The notes beneath the pieces are model-generated. The model ran no database searches. It saw only the letters and a program-made list of their open reading frames with translations, and was not told the DNA's origin. A DNA stretch of 64,000 nt. Source: Acidobacteriota bacterium. GTDB lineage: Bacteria; Acidobacteriota; UBA4820; DSQY01. The position numbers and the translations under genes were made by a program. This document shows positions 31,577 to 60,556 of the stretch, one piece after another. Where the stretch lies: the NCBI GenBank assembly GCA_049967655.1, contig JBMFSH010000002.1:32001-96000 (forward strand), in the 5' to 3' direction. Position 1 is the stretch's first letter; each line of letters starts with the position of its first letter.

Positions 31577-32189
31577 GCCACGCCTCCCGGATGCGCAGGG
31601 CGCCGATGGGTCCCTCCCGGAGGACCACCGGTTCCTCGCCGGCGGCCGCGACCACCGTGGAGGGCAGGCCTCCCGGCGCCCTCCCGCCGTCCAGCACGAG
31701 GAGAGGGGCCCCCGGAAAGGCGCGAGCCACCGCCTGGGCATCGAGACAGGGCGGCTCACCGCTCAGGTTGGCGCTGGTCACCGCCAAGGGGTCCTCGGCC
31801 TTGGCGAGCAACCGCAGGGCAACGGGATGGTCGGGAACCCTCACGGCCAGCGTGGAGCCTCCGGGAGCGAACCAGGCCGGGCACCTGGGCGGCCTGGGGA
31901 GGACGAGGGTGAGGGGGCCGGGCCAGAAGGCGAGGGCCAGCCGCTCGGCCCCCCGGGAAAAGGGAAAGCCCCAGGCTCGAACCCGGGCCAGGCTGTCCAT
32001 CTGGAGGGGAAGGAGCTTCTCCTGCGGCCTGCCCTTGAGTTCGAAGATCTGCTCCGCGGCCGAAGGCCCGTTCAAGCAGGCCGCCAGGCCGTAGACCGTT
32101 TCCGTCGGAAGAGCCAGCACACCGCCGGCCTTTAGGTGTTTCCAGGCCTCCTCGATCCAGCCCTCGCCCCGGGTCCCTATGGTCCGCAC
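31563..32189 (-). CDS. tsaC: L-threonylcarbamoyladenylate synthase (Sua5/YrdC)
   Basis: PTETVYGL, KGRP, FWPGPLT, VRVP and TSANLSG motifs. Confidence 0.92.
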   Translation of the reverse strand: MRTIGTRGEGWIEEAWKHLKAGGVLALPTETVYGLAACLNGPSAAEQIFELKGRPQEKLLPLQMDSLARVRAWGFPFSRGAERLALAFWPGPLTLVLPRPPRCPAWFAPGGSTLAVRVPDHPVALRLLAKAEDPLAVTSANLSGEPPCLDAQAVARAFPGAPLLVLDGGRAPGGLPSTVVAAAGEEPVVLREGPIGALRIREAWHGGP

Positions 32190-49614: not shown

Positions 49615-49642
49615 TTGACACCGAACGGGAAATAGATATAAT
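49615..49642 (+). promoter_or_regulatory. Sigma70-type promoter of tRNA-Lys
   Basis: Perfect TTGACA-N16-TATAAT ending 7 nt before the tRNA. Confidence 0.85.
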
Positions 49643-53099: not shown

Positions 53100-53765
53100 G
53101 TGATCAACAAGGACCTTCTGCGCAAAGCCAGCCTTTTCGCCGACCTGGATGCCGGGCAGTTGGAGAGCATCCTCAGGGTGGCGGAAATCCGGCGCTTTGC
53201 AAAAAACACCGTCCTTCTCAGGCAAGGTGAGCGGGGCGACGCTCTCTACCTGGTGCTCTCTGGCCGCGTCAAGGCGGTGCTGGTGGCGGAGGACGGCAGG
53301 GAGGTCACCCTGGCCATGCTCGATCCGGGGGAGATGGTCGGGGAGATGGCCGTCTTCGATTCCGAGGAGACGAGGTCGGCCACGGTGATCACCGTGGAGC
53401 CTTCGGAGCTCCTCATCCTTTCGGGCAACCAGTTCAAGCAGGCTCTTCAGGAGAACCCCTCCATCGCCATCGCGGTTATCCGCACCCTCTCCCGCCGCCT
53501 GAAAGAGACCAACAACCGTATCGGGAGCCTGATCTTTCTGGACACCTACAGCCGAGTCACCCGGTACCTGCTGGATCTGGCCAAACGCCAGGGCCGGCAG
53601 CTGGCGGACGGCTCGATGGTGGTGGTGCGGCCCACCCAGCAGGAGGTCGCGCTCTACCTGGGCACCAGCCGTGAGACGGTGAGCCGCGCTCTCACAGACC
53701 TCGAACACCAGGGGCTGATCCGGCTTCTGGGTCGAAAAATCATCCTGTACAGACTCCAGCGCTAA
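53100..53765 (+). CDS. crp: cAMP receptor protein (Crp/Fnr family)
   Basis: cNMP pocket GEM...RSA; C-helix RRLKETN; HTH GTSRETVSR; GTG start inferred. Confidence 0.88.
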   Translation: MINKDLLRKASLFADLDAGQLESILRVAEIRRFAKNTVLLRQGERGDALYLVLSGRVKAVLVAEDGREVTLAMLDPGEMVGEMAVFDSEETRSATVITVEPSELLILSGNQFKQALQENPSIAIAVIRTLSRRLKETNNRIGSLIFLDTYSRVTRYLLDLAKRQGRQLADGSMVVVRPTQQEVALYLGTSRETVSRALTDLEHQGLIRLLGRKIILYRLQR

Positions 53766-53818
53766 TACCCGCGGCCCGTTCACGGCCCTTGCTCTTCTCC
53801 TCTTTCCGCGGGAGGCCT

Positions 53819-53859
53819 TGTGCTGGCCGTCACAGTCCATGCGGATCCTGTGGTACTAT
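53819..53859 (+). promoter_or_regulatory. CRP box plus extended -10 element
   Basis: TGTGC-TGGCCG-TCACA (53819-53834; 9 of 10 to TGTGA-N6-TCACA) and TGgTACTAT (53851-53859). Confidence 0.65.
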
Positions 53860-53881
53860 CGTGTACATCAAGGAGGATCCC

Positions 53882-54988
53882 ATGAAGCTCCGACGGGTCG
53901 GCCGCGTGCTTGCCCTGTGCGGCTTGGTGGTTTTGGCGGCCTTCGCTCAGCGAGGCCCTTACTCCCCTTACAGGGAGAGGCTGCCCAATGGGATGGTGGA
54001 CTGGGACCAGGGCTGGATTCGAGCCGACGCGAGCGTCCCCCTGCGCAAGGGCATTCCTCCCGCCCAGGCGCTCGTGGAGGCCCAGCGGGTGGCCATGATC
54101 AAGGCCCAGGCCACGGCCCTGATGATCGCCATGCGGCTACCGGTCAACAGCGAACGCCGCCTCGAATCGTACGAAGCCCTCAAAATAAGGATCAAAGGCA
54201 TCGTGGCTGGCGGAGAGGTGGTGGACGAGGGAACGTCCGACGGGGTCTACCACATCTCCCTCAAGGTGCCCGTGAACGGAGTCCACGGCATCGTGTCGGC
54301 AGTCTCCATCGTGACCCTGCCGCCGGAGCCCCAGCCCCCGCCGAAAGAGCCCTCAGGCCGCACTGAGGCCAGGGGCAATGAGCCATCCCCCTCCGTGAAG
54401 CCTCCCCAGCAAAAGGAGGAGGCCCAGGCCGGAACCGGCCAGGAGGGGCCCTCCGACCTCTCCTCCTTCGCCTCGGTGACGGTGGACGCCACGGAGGCGG
54501 GCGTAAAGCCCGCCCTCCAGCCCCGCATCATCGACGAAAAGGGTCAGGAGGTGTATGGCCTAAAGACGGTCAAACCGCTGGTCGCCGGCACGAGGACACT
54601 GGCGAGATACGTCACGCCGGCCGTTGATGGCGCTGCCAACCCCTCCCACACCAGCTGGCTGGGGCCGGACCGCGTGGGACCTCTTCCTCTTGCCTTGATC
54701 TCGCCCCCCTGGAGGTTGCTGGCGCAATCGCAAGGAGAGCGCTCCATCGGACCAAGGGGAGCCTTGAACAGCCTAGTGGTGAAAGCCGTCAAGGCCTCGG
54801 GCACGCTCAAGGCGGACATCGTGGTGTCCGAGGAGACGGCCAGAAAGTTGCGGGAGTTGGACGCCCGCACGGGCGCTCTCTCGAACGGGCGGGTGACGGT
54901 CGTGGTCCGTTCGGACGTGGGCGGGGTGGAAAGCCGCCGGCTAAATCCGGAGGCTCAGGGCCCCTACGAACTCCTCGCCAAGAACTGA
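53882..54988 (+). CDS. Secreted LPP20-like protein of unknown function
   Basis: Signal peptide; G.VDW..GWI.A, A...A.R.A and VDA...V.PAL.PRIIDE.G.EVYG; Pro-rich linker; AAGGAGG SD. Confidence 0.65.
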   Translation: MKLRRVGRVLALCGLVVLAAFAQRGPYSPYRERLPNGMVDWDQGWIRADASVPLRKGIPPAQALVEAQRVAMIKAQATALMIAMRLPVNSERRLESYEALKIRIKGIVAGGEVVDEGTSDGVYHISLKVPVNGVHGIVSAVSIVTLPPEPQPPPKEPSGRTEARGNEPSPSVKPPQQKEEAQAGTGQEGPSDLSSFASVTVDATEAGVKPALQPRIIDEKGQEVYGLKTVKPLVAGTRTLARYVTPAVDGAANPSHTSWLGPDRVGPLPLALISPPWRLLAQSQGERSIGPRGALNSLVVKAVKASGTLKADIVVSEETARKLRELDARTGALSNGRVTVVVRSDVGGVESRRLNPEAQGPYELLAKN

Positions 54989-54994
54989 CGAGCC

Positions 54995-56863
54995 ATGCCG
55001 GTCCCCTCGCCCCCATTCCCCGCCAAGGTCTGGCGGGAGCGCCTGACGGTCGCCCTCCTGCTGGCCGTCGTAGTGGCCCTCCCTCTCGCGCTGGGGATCG
55101 CCCGAGGCGGAGAGGGCTGGACGTACGACCTGCTCCTTCGGCTCCAGGTGTGTCCGCCCTCTTCGCGCGTCCTGCTCGCCTGCATCGACGACGCCACCTA
55201 CAGGGACCTCGGAGGCCACGATCCGAACCGGGCCGAGATCGCCCAGGCCGTCGGCACCCTCTGGGCGAGGGGCGCCTCTCTCATCGGACTGGATCTCCTT
55301 TTCTGGCAGCCCAAGGAGCAGGAAGAGGCCGGGAACGAAGCCCTGGAAGCGGCCCTCTCCAAGGCCGACGTAGTCCTCGCCTCGGATCCGGCCCAGGGTT
55401 ATCTTCCCATCGGGCGCTTTCGCAGACAGGCCGTAGGGCTGGGTTCGGTTGATCTCGTCACGGACTCCGACGGCATTCTCCGCAGCCTGCCCGGCCCCTT
55501 CTTTGAGCCTTCGCCGGGAGGCCTCCGAATCAAGGCACTCCCGTTCGCCCTGGCGTGCGCCCTCCTGGAGTGGTTTCCCAATGGAGCACCGCCGGTCAGC
55601 ATGGAGCGCAGCGGAATCTCGTTCGGCCCGCACCTCTTCGCCATGCGGGGCGGACGCTGGTGGATCCCCTACTGCGGCGGTGACGGAACGCTGCCGCGCG
55701 TCTCCTTTATCGATGTGCTGAGGAATTCGCGGACTCTCCCCTCGATGAAGGGCCGCATCGTCCTCGTCGGCAACACCCGGCCGAGCGAGCACGACTACTT
55801 CTCCGTCCCCCTGCCCTCCGCGGTTCCTCCGCAGAGCGGCTTCAACGAGATCTCGACTCACTCCATGTCGGGCGTCGAGGTGCACGGGCAGGCCCTGTCG
55901 GCGCTCCTCTTGGGCCGCTCCATCCTTCCCATCTCCTCAGCCCAGCGGTGGGCCGCCTTCGCGCTCCTCGCCTCCGTGGGAACGCTCCTGGTGCTCCTGC
56001 CGCTGAAGCCTATCCCCTCCCTCGTGGCGTGGCTCTCGGCGGGAGCCGCCCTCGCCGCCACGGGCGTCGCAGCCATCCGATCGGGCCACGTCCTGCCCAT
56101 GTTCAGCCTGGGGCTGGGATGGATCGCCTACGCTGGCGCCTCCTTCGCCTATCAGCGCTACAGCGACTTCCGCCAGAAGCGCGCCGTGGAGCGGCTCTTC
56201 TCCCGATACGTCTCCCCCAACATCGCCAGCAAGCTCCTTCGCCAGCCGGACCTCGTGCAGTTGGGCGGGAGGCGAAAGGAGCTGACCATCCTCTTCTCCG
56301 ATATCAGGGGATTCACCACCCTCTCGGAGCAGATTCCCCCGGAGCAGGTGAGCTCCCTGCTGAACGATTACTTCACCGAGATGACCCGCATCCTGTTCGA
56401 GTACGACGGCACCCTCGACAAGTTCATCGGCGACGCCATCCTGGCCTTTTTCGGAGACCCCGTGAACCAGGAGGACCATTCGGCCCGCGCCCTGGCCTGC
56501 GCCGTGGCCATGCAGGAGCGGGCGGCCTCGCTGAGGGCCCGCTTCCAAGCCGAGGGCAAGCCGCCCCTCCACATGGGCGTGGCGGTCCATACCGGGCCCG
56601 TGGTGGTGGGCAACAACGGTTCGGAGAACAACTTCGTCTATACCGTCATCGGCGACACCGTGAACCTCACCTCGCGCCTCCAAGGGCTGGCCCAGCAGGA
56701 CGACGTCATCGTGACCGCTTCCACGGCGGAACGGATTCCCGGTTTCAATGAGCGCTACGAGAACGAGAGGCTCGATCCCGTCCGGGTCAAGGGAAAGGCT
56801 GAACCCATCGAGATCGTACGTGTGAAGGGACTCAAGAACGAGGAGGCTTCCCATGAACACTAA
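54995..56863 (+). CDS. CHASE2-domain membrane adenylate cyclase (class III)
   Basis: IDD..Y, IGLDLLF, DSDGILR and GVEVH (CHASE2), 3 TM helices; FSDIRGFT, DKFIGDA and YTVIGDTVNLTSRLQ catalytic domain. Confidence 0.93.
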   Translation: MPVPSPPFPAKVWRERLTVALLLAVVVALPLALGIARGGEGWTYDLLLRLQVCPPSSRVLLACIDDATYRDLGGHDPNRAEIAQAVGTLWARGASLIGLDLLFWQPKEQEEAGNEALEAALSKADVVLASDPAQGYLPIGRFRRQAVGLGSVDLVTDSDGILRSLPGPFFEPSPGGLRIKALPFALACALLEWFPNGAPPVSMERSGISFGPHLFAMRGGRWWIPYCGGDGTLPRVSFIDVLRNSRTLPSMKGRIVLVGNTRPSEHDYFSVPLPSAVPPQSGFNEISTHSMSGVEVHGQALSALLLGRSILPISSAQRWAAFALLASVGTLLVLLPLKPIPSLVAWLSAGAALAATGVAAIRSGHVLPMFSLGLGWIAYAGASFAYQRYSDFRQKRAVERLFSRYVSPNIASKLLRQPDLVQLGGRRKELTILFSDIRGFTTLSEQIPPEQVSSLLNDYFTEMTRILFEYDGTLDKFIGDAILAFFGDPVNQEDHSARALACAVAMQERAASLRARFQAEGKPPLHMGVAVHTGPVVVGNNGSENNFVYTVIGDTVNLTSRLQGLAQQDDVIVTASTAERIPGFNERYENERLDPVRVKGKAEPIEIVRVKGLKNEEASHEH

Positions 56864-57932
56864 ATCGCTGGCCCTCTGCGCACTCCTGGGAGTGGCGACG
56901 GCTCTGGGCGTCCACGCGCAGCAGACCGTTACGGCCACCGGCACCGCCGCGATCCTGAACAAGGACGCCGCGCAGGCGCGGGACAGGGCCGTGGAAAGCG
57001 CCCTTCGCGCGGCAGTCGAGCGCGTGGTGGGCACGATGGTGGATTCGGAGAGTCTGGTCAAGAACAACGACCTGATCTCCGACAAGATCTACACCCAGAC
57101 GAAGGGCTACATCTCCAACTACACCATCCTCTCCGAAACGCCGGACCTGGAGGACAACATCTACTCGGTGAAGGTGGAGGCCACGGTAAAGGAGGGCGAC
57201 CTCGCCGATGACCTGAACTCCCTGGGCGTCCTCATGCACCGGATGAACATGCCCCGGGTGGCCGTGGCCCTGCGGGAGCAGGACAGCACCGCCTCCGACC
57301 AGATCCTCAGGATGCTCAAGGACAAAGGATTCCTGGTGGTGGATACGGGGGAGAGCGCCAGGTCCCAGGGGTTCTGGGGAATGCCCGAGGGCCAGCAGGC
57401 CGATCTCATGAAGAAGTACGGCGCCGAGGTCGTGGTGCTGGGCAGCGCCAGCGGGCAGGCCGGCTCTAACGTGGGCCGCTCCAGCCTCATTTCCTACCAG
57501 GCCAACGTGAGTCTCAAGGCCCTCAAGACCGATACCCACGAACTGCTGGGCACGGCCTCCGGCAGCGGCACCGCCGTGAACGTGGGCGACGCGGGCCTGG
57601 CCCAGGCCCTTCGGCAGGCCTCCACGGTCGCCGGCAACGACCTGATCAGACAGATCACCAACCAGTGGGCCAAGGAGGCCTCCTCGACGCGCATGCTGAC
57701 GCTGGTGCTCCGCGGGGTGACGCCGGCCCGAGCCGAAGAGGTGGCCCGGCGCCTTCGCGAGGAGGGGCGGGGGATCCAGGACGTCATCGTCAGGGAATCC
57801 TCCGGACAGGAGGCCACCCTGGACGTCTCCATGCAGGGCGACGCGGCGGCCCTCGCGCAGGAGCTCACCAAGGTGTTCCCCAAGGCCAGGATCCTCTCCC
57901 AGACCGCCAACCGTTTGACAGCCTCACTGTGA
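56853..57932 (+). CDS. Secreted FlgT N-terminal-like domain protein
   Basis: Signal peptide; V.ATG.A.I....A.ARD.A...ALR.AVE...G..V.S. Confidence 0.65.
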   Translation: MNTKSLALCALLGVATALGVHAQQTVTATGTAAILNKDAAQARDRAVESALRAAVERVVGTMVDSESLVKNNDLISDKIYTQTKGYISNYTILSETPDLEDNIYSVKVEATVKEGDLADDLNSLGVLMHRMNMPRVAVALREQDSTASDQILRMLKDKGFLVVDTGESARSQGFWGMPEGQQADLMKKYGAEVVVLGSASGQAGSNVGRSSLISYQANVSLKALKTDTHELLGTASGSGTAVNVGDAGLAQALRQASTVAGNDLIRQITNQWAKEASSTRMLTLVLRGVTPARAEEVARRLREEGRGIQDVIVRESSGQEATLDVSMQGDAAALAQELTKVFPKARILSQTANRLTASL

Positions 57933-57966
57933 GGTCGGTATGCTCGAACCCAAGGAGGAAAGAACC

Positions 57967-58854
57967 ATGAGGCGCACGCTCCTTTTCGTGGTGTTGTTCC
58001 TCTCGATGGCCGCAGCGGCCGTGAGCACCTTCGCCCAAAAGCCCCGCATCGCGGTTCTGAAGATCCGCAACGATTCCGCGTACGGCTCGGCCCGCCTTGG
58101 GCCCGCCATCCAGGACTGGCTCGTGGAGGGCCTCGTCCAGTCAGGCCAATTCCACGTGGTGGAGAGAAAGGAGCTCGAATCCATTCTGAACGAGCAGGGC
58201 CTATCCCTCAGCGGCGCGGTGGACGATAAGACGGCCATCCAGGTAGGGAAGCTGCTGGGATGCCAGCTCGTGGTGCTCGGGGCCGTCACGGACTTCTCCA
58301 GGCACCAATCGGGGGGCCACGGCGTCTGGGGCATCGGCTTCAGCGTGGTCGTCACGAAGGCCGAGGGCACCGTCAACATCAGGTTGGTCAACACGACGAC
58401 GGGCGAAATCGTATGGACGGGCTCGGAGAAGGGCGAGCACTCCTTCAGCAACGTGGACGTGGCTGGCTTCGGCGGCGGCGTGGATTGGGACGAGTCCCAG
58501 GCGCGTCAGATTTTCGAGCCGGCGGTGACCGCCCTCGTCCAGAAGATCGTCAGTGCGGCGGGGAACATCAAGGAGAGCCTGGGCTCCGTGGCGGTCCTCT
58601 CGGGCAAGGTGGCCAAGGTCGACGAGGGCCGGGTCTACCTGAACATCGGGAGCGTGGACGGCGTCAAGGAGGGCGACCAGTACACCCTGTACCACGTGGG
58701 TGAGACCATCACCGACCCCGACACGGGCAAGGTCCTCGGCCAGGAGAAATCCCGCATCGGCACGGTGAGCGTGACCAAGGTGCTGGGCGATCACCTCTCC
58801 ATGGCCGTGGCCAACGGCGGCCCCGTGCAAGTGGGAGACGTGGTCCAGAAATAG
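57967..58854 (+). CDS. Secreted CsgG/HfaB-family protein with a FlgT C-terminal-like domain
   Basis: KPRIAV, SG.F.VVER.EL..IL.EQ.L, GKLLG and RLVN.TTGEI; C-terminal GKV..V....VYLNIGS.DGVK.GD. Confidence 0.8.
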   Translation: MRRTLLFVVLFLSMAAAAVSTFAQKPRIAVLKIRNDSAYGSARLGPAIQDWLVEGLVQSGQFHVVERKELESILNEQGLSLSGAVDDKTAIQVGKLLGCQLVVLGAVTDFSRHQSGGHGVWGIGFSVVVTKAEGTVNIRLVNTTTGEIVWTGSEKGEHSFSNVDVAGFGGGVDWDESQARQIFEPAVTALVQKIVSAAGNIKESLGSVAVLSGKVAKVDEGRVYLNIGSVDGVKEGDQYTLYHVGETITDPDTGKVLGQEKSRIGTVSVTKVLGDHLSMAVANGGPVQVGDVVQK

Positions 58855-58977: not shown

Positions 58978-59529
58978 GTGACGCTCGCCAACCTACTCAC
59001 CGTCTTCAGGCTGGTTCTGATCCCCTTCTTCCTCATGGCGGTCTTTTACGGCCATGCCCGGGTGGCCTTGGCGATCTTCCTCTGTGCCGGAATCACCGAC
59101 GGTCTCGACGGCTTCATCGCCCGGTTCTTCAACCAGCGGACGGCCCTGGGGGCATTTCTCGATCCCATGGCCGATAAGCTCATGCTCACCAGCGCCTTCG
59201 TCGCCCTGGCCATCCCCGAAGCCGGACTTGGCTACAGCATTCCCGTCTGGCTCCCGGTGCTCACCATCGCCCGCGACGTGGTCATCGTGCTCCTCTCGCT
59301 TCTCCTGAACCTTGCCTTCAATCTCAAACAGTTCCCTCCCTCGGTGCCGGGAAAGATGACCACCTTTTTCCAGATTAGCTTCGTGGTGGCCGTCCTGCTG
59401 CAGAACGCCTACTCCTTTCCTGCCGAGGTCGTCACGGGCCTTATGTGGACCGTGGCCTTCTTTACCGTCTTTTCCGGGATCCATTACTTGTGGAGGATGC
59501 GCTCCATGACGAAAGGGGTGGATTCGTGA
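58978..59529 (+). CDS. pgsA: CDP-alcohol phosphatidyltransferase (PgsA-like)
   Basis: ANLLT..R; DGLDG..AR...Q.T.LG..LDP.ADK. Confidence 0.85.
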   Translation: MTLANLLTVFRLVLIPFFLMAVFYGHARVALAIFLCAGITDGLDGFIARFFNQRTALGAFLDPMADKLMLTSAFVALAIPEAGLGYSIPVWLPVLTIARDVVIVLLSLLLNLAFNLKQFPPSVPGKMTTFFQISFVVAVLLQNAYSFPAEVVTGLMWTVAFFTVFSGIHYLWRMRSMTKGVDS

Positions 59530-60527: not shown

Positions 60528-60556
60528 TTGACACGCCCGAAGGGCGGGGCTATACT
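60528..60556 (+). promoter_or_regulatory. Sigma70-type promoter of rpsA
   Basis: TTGACA-N17-TATACT. Confidence 0.8.

Follow-up and report, generated by a model that had tools for sequence, protein, structure and literature searches.

The 64,000-nucleotide stretch of Acidobacteriota DNA analysed here (the window; positions 32,001 to 96,000 of contig JBMFSH010000002.1) carries a CHASE2 adenylate cyclase gene packed among genes for three predicted exported proteins, designated P2, P4 and P5, and these four genes, in the order P2-cyclase-P4-P5, form the conserved unit. Because a CRP-type box is conserved upstream of P2, the operon is likely to be a CRP target, and a gene for a CRP-family regulator lies directly upstream in this genome. 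The explanation preferred here, which gene content and order place a little short of an even chance, is that the cyclase would read a non-flagellar scaffold through P2 and feed back via cyclic AMP (cAMP) and CRP on transcription of the operon. The features of the locus, in window coordinates, are as follows.

53100-53765, + strand: CRP-family regulator, 221 amino acids (aa); Pfam cNMP_binding and HTH_Crp_2
53819-53834, + strand: CRP-type palindrome TGTGC-N6-TCACA, 9/10 consensus bases, upstream of P2
53851-53859, + strand: extended -10 like element TGGTACTAT of a putative promoter, hexamer beginning 19 nt past the box
53882-54988, + strand: P2, predicted exported, 368 aa; Tp0624 D1-D2 unit and Pro-rich linker, no Pfam family
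54995-56863, + strand: CHASE2 class III adenylate cyclase, 622 aa; Pfam CHASE2 and Guanylate_cyc
56853-57932, + strand: P4, predicted exported, 359 aa; FlgT-N, FlgT-M/TolB-N/PelC-like and small C-terminal alpha/beta domains
57967-58854, + strand: P5, predicted exported, 295 aa; CsgG-like and FlgT-C/TsaP-like domains
58978-59529, + strand: CDP-alcohol phosphatidyltransferase (pgsA-like), which follows P5 here

The original prediction, made from the sequence without database searches, had described five co-directional + strand genes with the last four tightly packed, and both the open reading frames (ORFs) and the junctions were confirmed: the gaps between CRP, P2, cyclase, P4 and P5 are 116, 6, -11 and 34 nt. 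P2 starts at an ATG with a GGAGG site at 53882, the TTG at 53789 returned by the ORF finder lying upstream of it. The cluster is flanked by lepB-DUF4388-miaA-hfq on one side and by pgsA-DUF192-doxX on the other, and GC content is unchanged across it. Within the family, 23 of 24 genomes have P2, and P2-cyclase-P4 is intact in all 18 loci fetched, with P5 next in 17 and a contig end in the eighteenth. The co-occurrence in other genomes that had been anticipated was therefore borne out, both by these loci and by P2-cyclase adjacency in five Acidobacteriota families. The lepB-DUF4388-miaA-hfq ... pgsA-rpsA region is syntenic across the family, and in three genomes (G007, G011, G004) the four genes have moved jointly away from hfq.

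The CRP gene is only loosely linked to the operon and travels with hfq. It lies directly upstream of P2 in 13 of 18 family loci (frameshifted in one) and is absent in three, while the remaining two end before its position could be seen. In G007, G011 and G004, hfq is still followed by the CRP orthologue, but on a different contig from the operon and with other genes downstream; no orthologue was found in G012 (97% complete), although the operon is present. An obligate five-gene unit was rejected on these grounds, and the description of the module as five-gene has to be given up. Nor is it self-contained, since three further genes with a class III cyclase domain are present in the genome, and in other genomes the exported trio persists where no CHASE2 cyclase was detected; a second CRP-family protein is also encoded, so the circuit is not sealed. 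The term trans-envelope is not supported for this operon, which has neither a beta-barrel nor a lipoprotein gene. The CRP gene in G020 (L029:3435-4066) and the cyclase gene in G005 (L033:5465-7178) look frameshifted, by assembly error or decay.

The CRP-type box at 53819-53834 was missed in the first reading of the sequence. A box with at least 8/10 consensus bases within 150 nt of the P2 start was found in 11 of 19 family promoters, in five of the six genera; of the other eight, seven lack it and one is truncated. Across 21 regions of 400 nt (the 19 family promoters together with L039 and L190), 12 reached at least 8/10 with a 6-nt spacer, against 1, 0, 1 and 3 with spacers of 4, 5, 7 and 8 nt; in the genome background 111 of 8132 comparable windows reach at least 8/10 and eight reach 9/10. 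The arms hold across the family while the spacer sequence varies. From the box to the extended -10 hexamer the distance is 19 nt in four promoters, 21 nt in one and 39 nt in five, the eleventh box-bearing family promoter having no such element, and the two distance classes sit about two helical turns apart. In E. coli, the spacing to the -10 element is 21 nt for CRP promoters of class II and 41 nt for those of class I. The two spacing classes resemble these promoter types, which favours activation and is not proof of it. Two loci in which CRP is no longer adjacent (L036 and L038) still have the box; it is missing in L027, from the genome without a CRP orthologue, yet also in two sister genomes that keep CRP. 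A sigma-70 scan of the window did not list the P2 promoter. In one metatranscriptome, short contigs of a relative (word share 0.05) cover hfq, CRP, P2 and P5 and none covers the cyclase or P4; such contigs cannot show operon structure or expression level.

By sequence, the regulator is a member of the CRP family and not an orthologue of E. coli CRP: against the NCBIfam equivalog for the enterobacterial protein (NF008732) it scores 153 bits, below the cut-off of 266. Among solved structures it is closest to Corynebacterium GlxR (E 1.7e-38) and mycobacterial Crp, with which it shares the type of cyclic nucleotide pocket and RE...R helix (recognition helix RETVSR). The motifs first read in it stood in large part, G81-E82, R92 and R191-E192...R196 being invariant in eight orthologues, while the proposed TN contact (T137-N138) changes to T-S or S-S.

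The cyclase is predicted to make cAMP. The metal Asp pair, Lys, Thr and N..R residues assigned in the original prediction (D436, K476, D480, T550, N557, R561) are all invariant in 48 aligned homologues, and the nearest solved chains are bacterial adenylate cyclases. CHASE2 (PF05226) matches residues 24-327 with E 2.9e-38, above the cut-off, and a hydrophobic segment at 14-40 and a hydrophobic block at 318-361, ahead of the catalytic domain at 428-603, suggest that it lies outside the cytoplasm between membrane helices. A profile search found only one CHASE2 gene in the genome; in the family, 20 of 21 positive genomes have a single one, always within the operon. A quick tree of 32 rows, in which several outgroup branches are long and L190 is unplaced, groups 15 acidobacterial P2-adjacent cyclases in one clade (SH-like approximate likelihood ratio test 97), and the cyclase is for this reason regarded as an accessory that Acidobacteriota acquired a single time and that some lineages later lost. 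A three-chain complex prediction of CHASE2 (38-316), P2 and P4 scored 0.00 in both runs, with controls not folded, and so speaks neither for nor against an interface.

P2 appears, from its predicted model and profile comparisons, to carry both domains of the Tp0624 D1-D2 unit in tandem. The model (mean predicted local distance difference test score, pLDDT, 68) has two confident domains joined by a low-confidence linker, with further low-confidence loops. Foldseek matched it to Tp0624 at E 3e-9, the next entry being at E 0.04, and structural alignment gave Z 14.7 over 195 residues at a root-mean-square deviation of 11.5, which is high because the two domains are placed differently. Furthermore, a profile of 91 P2 homologues aligned with both D1 and D2 of a 476-aa OmpA-fused Tp0624-type ORF (hhalign 98.9%, E 2e-17). 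The earlier label of P2 as LPP20-like fits the first 110 residues and leaves the rest of the protein uncovered: D1 is modelled with the Lpp20/FlgP/FlgT-N fold, Lpp20 being the next-best structure (Z 8.1, first domain only). Identity with the LPP20 lipoprotein (PF02169) was rejected, as no Pfam family matched P2 and it has no lipobox Cys. Tp0624 D1-D2 is described as a functional unit of unassigned role with nearly 50 other sequences (PMC5104382). The P2 family now comprises 1809 representatives at 50% identity (E<=0.001), and among 32 long homologues scanned, 14 combine an FlgT_N domain (E<=0.001) with the P2 unit in one chain, as do four loci of family f35. P2 matched 99 of 101 spirochaete genomes, mostly once and in some cases partially, so that the Tp0624 D1-D2 family looks like a near-core spirochaete envelope protein. 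The 20 spirochaete loci fetched (L156-L175) share no common neighbourhood around this gene.

P4 and P5 resemble, in sequence and in model, a split and non-flagellar FlgT/CsgG pair. The FlgT-N-like and CsgG/FlgT-C-like labels given to them were supported by Pfam, with FlgT_N in P4 (E 9e-8) and CsgG (E 6e-31) and FlgT_C in P5. The P4 model (pLDDT 83) has FlgT as its best match (E 7e-11). The middle domain of P4 resembles PelC (Z 11.8), CsgG (Z 11.1) and TolB-N in the range Z 10-12, and profile alignment shows it to be homologous to the N-terminal domain of P5 (hhalign 94%). The FlgT domains are thus divided, N and M in P4 and M-like and C in P5, and neither protein is a single-chain FlgT. In P5 the Gly-rich hairpin aligns with that of CsgG and the C-terminal part with TsaP/FlgT-C; a weak match to DUF4136 (E 2.6e-4) is under the cut-off. 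The prediction of three secreted proteins stood as regards their hydrophobic N-termini, which end in an Ala-type site before Gln and are conserved in orthologues, although P4 falls below the hydropathy cut-off. In all 12 aligned rows of P5, an Ala-type signal is followed by Gln as the predicted first residue of the mature protein. As no lipobox Cys stands at the cleavage site, the three are not lipoproteins here, and P5 lacks the N-terminal lipid anchor of the curli CsgG channel. A LipL46 assignment for P4 was rejected (42 bits against a cut-off of 400), the resemblance being distant. Profile searches of the 99.3%-complete genome gave no match to flagellin (PF00669) or FlgH (PF02107), while control profiles matched, and a flagellar role for the three proteins was rejected for that reason. 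Elsewhere in the genome (G000 C30:12080-13609) a second exported protein has a FlgT-C-like stretch resembling the C-terminal domain of P5.

Beyond the family, the parts separate. Among 301 Acidobacteriota genomes, P2 was found in 35, P4 in 30 and some CHASE2 gene in 122, and all 30 genomes with P4 also match P2. In the 14 P2-positive genomes from other families the cyclase directly follows P2 in five (families f24, f35 and f55), and one P2 locus is a short fragment; G029 (family f3) also has the P2-cyclase pair. In f24, f35 and f55 the P4-P5-pgsA genes are located elsewhere in the genome, while G073 has the order CRP-P2-P4-P5 without a cyclase. These separate P4-P5 genes showed no box, nor did most P2 genes outside the family. 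In at least six Acidobacteriota families and at three loci in the phylum of G306, the gene after P5 or P2 is pgsA-like, often accompanied by an AI-2E transporter gene; pgsA is possibly part of the ancestral operon.

In other phyla, P2 was found in 33 of 121 genomes (phylum of the Desulfobacterales record) and 6 of 61 (phylum of the Fidelibacterota record), and P4 matched in 41 of the 121 and in 46 of the 101 spirochaete genomes. The Desulfobacterales phylum has a longer operon of P2, a TPR-SLH lipoprotein, P4, a GNA1162-like lipoprotein, a lipidated P5, PEGA and FecR, and this recurs at the matching miaA/hflX...pgsA position. Loci with the longer operon are L139, L140, L141, L144 and L181 (phylum of G306), L184 and L188, and L074 and L075; in it, SLH domains are borne by lipoproteins of two-membrane bacteria. 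CHASE2 cyclases lie in or beside such operons at L139, L149, L216 and L217, three of which include a FecR gene; L216 and L217 come from three further nearby matches, the third of which (L219) is 10 kb off and unlinked. L190, in the Desulfobacterales phylum, has the order P2 fusion-cyclase-P4 with a 9/10 box 67 nt upstream. At this locus (L190:6511-11185, G339) the operon is divergent from two MshEN/PilB-type ATPase genes and a PilT-like gene, and the P5 C domain resembles TsaP. P2 and CHASE2 co-occur in the sample of the G306 phylum (24/26 against 47/95, Fisher p 4e-5; hand-tallied counts of full-length P2 at E<=1e-20), a value that is overstated since kin are not independent. The exported trio is older than its cyclase: other phyla have it alongside genes for wall-binding SLH proteins and FecR, in most cases with no cyclase.

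These data suggest a mechanism of graded probability. P2, P4 and P5 would quite probably assemble together into a periplasmic scaffold, as gene fusions and co-occurrence indicate, and the assembly may brace the wall and outer membrane, given the SLH, OmpA-like or lipoprotein anchors on partners in other phyla. By analogy, a structural envelope role is likely, because those partners carry wall and outer-membrane anchors and the folds are those of periplasmic rings; outer-membrane anchors elsewhere include a lipoprotein and, in f35, a small beta-barrel. CRP-cAMP would, with good probability, activate the operon and not repress it. That CHASE2 takes its input from the scaffold, as gene order hints, is the weakest step and somewhat doubtful; assembly and activation are firmer. 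P2 is a candidate partner because the single CHASE2 gene of the family always sits in the operon, and a route through P2 is preferred because, in split operons, it is P2 that the cyclase remains beside. A wider form of the idea, in which Tp0624 D1-D2, the split FlgT-like pair and the TPR-SLH/GNA1162/FecR proteins would be an ancient non-flagellar wall-outer-membrane scaffold whose assembly state is the CHASE2 ligand, is unlikely as it stands.

Several observations weigh against the preferred explanation. No cyclase adjoins P2 in 8 of the 14 non-family genomes, no CHASE2 cyclase orthologue was found in G083, G105 and G073, which keep P2, P4 and P5, and a CHASE2 cyclase was present in the fetched stretch of 3 of 40 P2 loci from two phylum samples (L139, L149, L190) and of none of 20 spirochaete loci. 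The acidobacterial adjacency goes back to one ancestral event and is therefore not repeated independent evidence. One query did not find the TPR-SLH partner of other lineages in this genome, and purified Tp0624 is reported as a monomer (PMC5104382). Seven family promoters that could be assessed lack the box, among them all three from genus g6, and the sign of regulation is not fixed because the 19- and 39-nt spacings are each 2 nt below the E. coli values. The conserved phased box itself makes the exported proteins, along with the cyclase, likely outputs of cAMP-CRP, and in Sinorhizobium meliloti the Clr-activated smc02177 and smc02178 are not required for signal perception (PMC5498481).

The last two points lead to a different reading, rather unlikely overall, in which the exported trio are effectors that do not touch CHASE2 and the cyclase senses an unrelated signal or another partner, such as a FecR-domain protein. 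Apart from the box in front of the exported genes and the smc02177/smc02178 precedent, this would account for a trio that works without a cyclase in many genomes, and a FecR-domain gene is present elsewhere in this one. It fits less well with the split operons of f24, f35 and f55, which keep the cyclase with P2 and not with P4-P5: no box was seen at those P4-P5 genes, nor at most P2 genes of other families, so co-regulation alone fails to explain the pairing. The cyclase could also be a passenger that landed once in an old envelope operon at miaA/hfq/hflX-pgsA, with CRP a mere neighbour of hfq and no functional link. The syntenic lepB to rpsA region, the single acidobacterial clade, the repeated loss of the cyclase and the attachment of CRP to hfq would all be expected of a passenger. 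A box that is conserved with a varying spacer, sits at two phased positions and moves with the operon would not be, nor would the joint relocation of four genes in G007, G011 and G004, and such operons in another phylum hold CHASE2 cyclases of their own, at least two of which branch elsewhere in the tree; a passenger is quite unlikely.

A further possibility, and a very unlikely one, is that P5 oligomerises like CsgG or PelC as an outer-membrane channel or anchor serving a surface protein or polysaccharide, with P2 and P4 as periplasmic accessories and the cyclase reporting traffic. The alignment of P5 with CsgG through the Gly-rich hairpin and the PelC and CsgG matches of the P4 middle domain speak for it, as do the P5 orthologues of the Desulfobacterales phylum, which carry a lipobox Cys and lie beside a GNA1162-like gene, an arrangement shared with the Acinetobacter 'curli-like' cluster. 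P5 has no lipid anchor here, however, the fold is common to many non-pore proteins (TolB-N, LptE, LpoB), and no substrate gene is linked to the operon. A scaffold read through P2 remains the explanation favoured here.

The closest known system is the NsrA-CyaD1/CyaD2/CyaK-Clr pathway of S. meliloti, in which CHASE2 cyclases are activated through the outer-membrane protein NsrA and act through Clr, the route from NsrA to the cyclases being described in genetic terms (PMC13001267, PMC7529298). There, clr, cyaD1, smc02177 and smc02178 are clustered and the last two are Clr targets (PMC5498481). Common to that pathway and the locus described here are a CHASE2 class III cyclase beside a CRP-family gene, box-bearing neighbours of unassigned function and, in the proposed system, cyclase input via an envelope protein. 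Unlike S. meliloti, no NsrA-type beta-barrel family was found among 11 genes scanned at this locus, the partners are Tp0624-, FlgT- and CsgG-like instead of FecR/TPR proteins, the box is of the TGTGA-N6-TCACA type and not a Clr box, and the cyclase gene itself stands behind it. Treponema pallidum Tp0624 (PDB 5JIR, PMC5104382) has both P2 domains in the same order, whereas in P2 the OmpA-like D3 is missing and the Pro-rich linker is longer, and none of 20 spirochaete loci has a cyclase, P4 or P5 adjoining. FlgP, Lpp20 and FlgT share a single fold used for rings and disks (PMC12222027), and the Vibrio FlgT/FlgP/FlgO rings and the Campylobacter FlgP disk (PDB 3W1E, 8Z5N; PMC12222027) are matched by P4 N and M, P5 M-like and C, and P2 D1. 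In contrast to those rings, the FlgT-type domains here extend over two genes with the middle domain duplicated, and there is no motor to encircle, since flagellin and FlgH were not found in the 99%-complete genome.

P5 also shares its CsgG-family domain with CsgG and with the Acinetobacter csgG 'curli-like' cluster, whose CsgG and two lipoproteins affect the surface matrix (bioRxiv 10.1101/2021.05.19.444899). The GNA1162-like partner of that cluster matches the longer operon of another phylum, while P5 here has no lipobox, an extra FlgT-C domain and no GNA1162-like gene in its operon. The Burkholderia BiofilmReg operon (response regulator, LysM-FecR, CHASE2 kinase and DUF4136; PMC5192318) likewise co-transcribes a CHASE2 sensor with exported wall-associated partners and a regulator, but signals by phosphorelay instead of cAMP and with other partner families. 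The claim that no such system had been described therefore held for the composition, which was not found in the open-access literature (most subscription journals lying outside its scope), and not for the kind of system, as a CHASE2-cyclase-CRP trans-envelope pathway with other partners is known in S. meliloti and CHASE2 sensors with envelope partners and a regulator are already on record. New here are the recognition of P2 as a Tp0624-type protein, the finding that the box is conserved in phase, the longer ancestral operon, and evidence that CRP and the cyclase can each detach.

The signal sensed by CHASE2 is stated to be unknown (PMC5192318); with P2 named as a candidate partner, CHASE2 sensing becomes testable. 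The same is true of the role of Tp0624 D1-D2, which in other phyla stands beside FlgT-, CsgG-, SLH- and FecR-type genes. If the scaffold exists, it would be a widespread envelope structure to which the ring-forming parts of flagella may be related, and if its assembly state were the CHASE2 ligand, the system would be an envelope-integrity sensor with positive feedback through cAMP-CRP and a protein ligand for CHASE2.

Other CRP-type boxes are scattered through the genome. A whole-genome scan returned three perfect boxes where 0.08 would be expected and 15 near-perfect ones against an expected 7.1, and a matrix scan gave 65 matches, mostly inside genes. Two perfect boxes lie 54 nt apart in a long non-coding stretch (G000 C101:1212 and 1266), and further intergenic boxes stand at C9:22640, C44:11582, C2:125398, C6:63033 and C9:2716. 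Genes behind these other intergenic boxes encode a 1200-aa beta-propeller/PKD exported protein, a small YXWGXW-like lipoprotein or D-Ala-D-Ala carboxypeptidase, dodecin, and a metallo-beta-lactamase-fold hydrolase. Within the window, a sigma-70-like site (TTGACA-18-TATGCT, 10/12) at 57915-57944 spans the end of P4 and is a possible internal promoter for P5, and near-perfect sigma-70 promoters lie at 49615-49642 (12/12; tsaD-lepB gap) and 60528-60556 (11/12; upstream of the doxX/rpsA junction).

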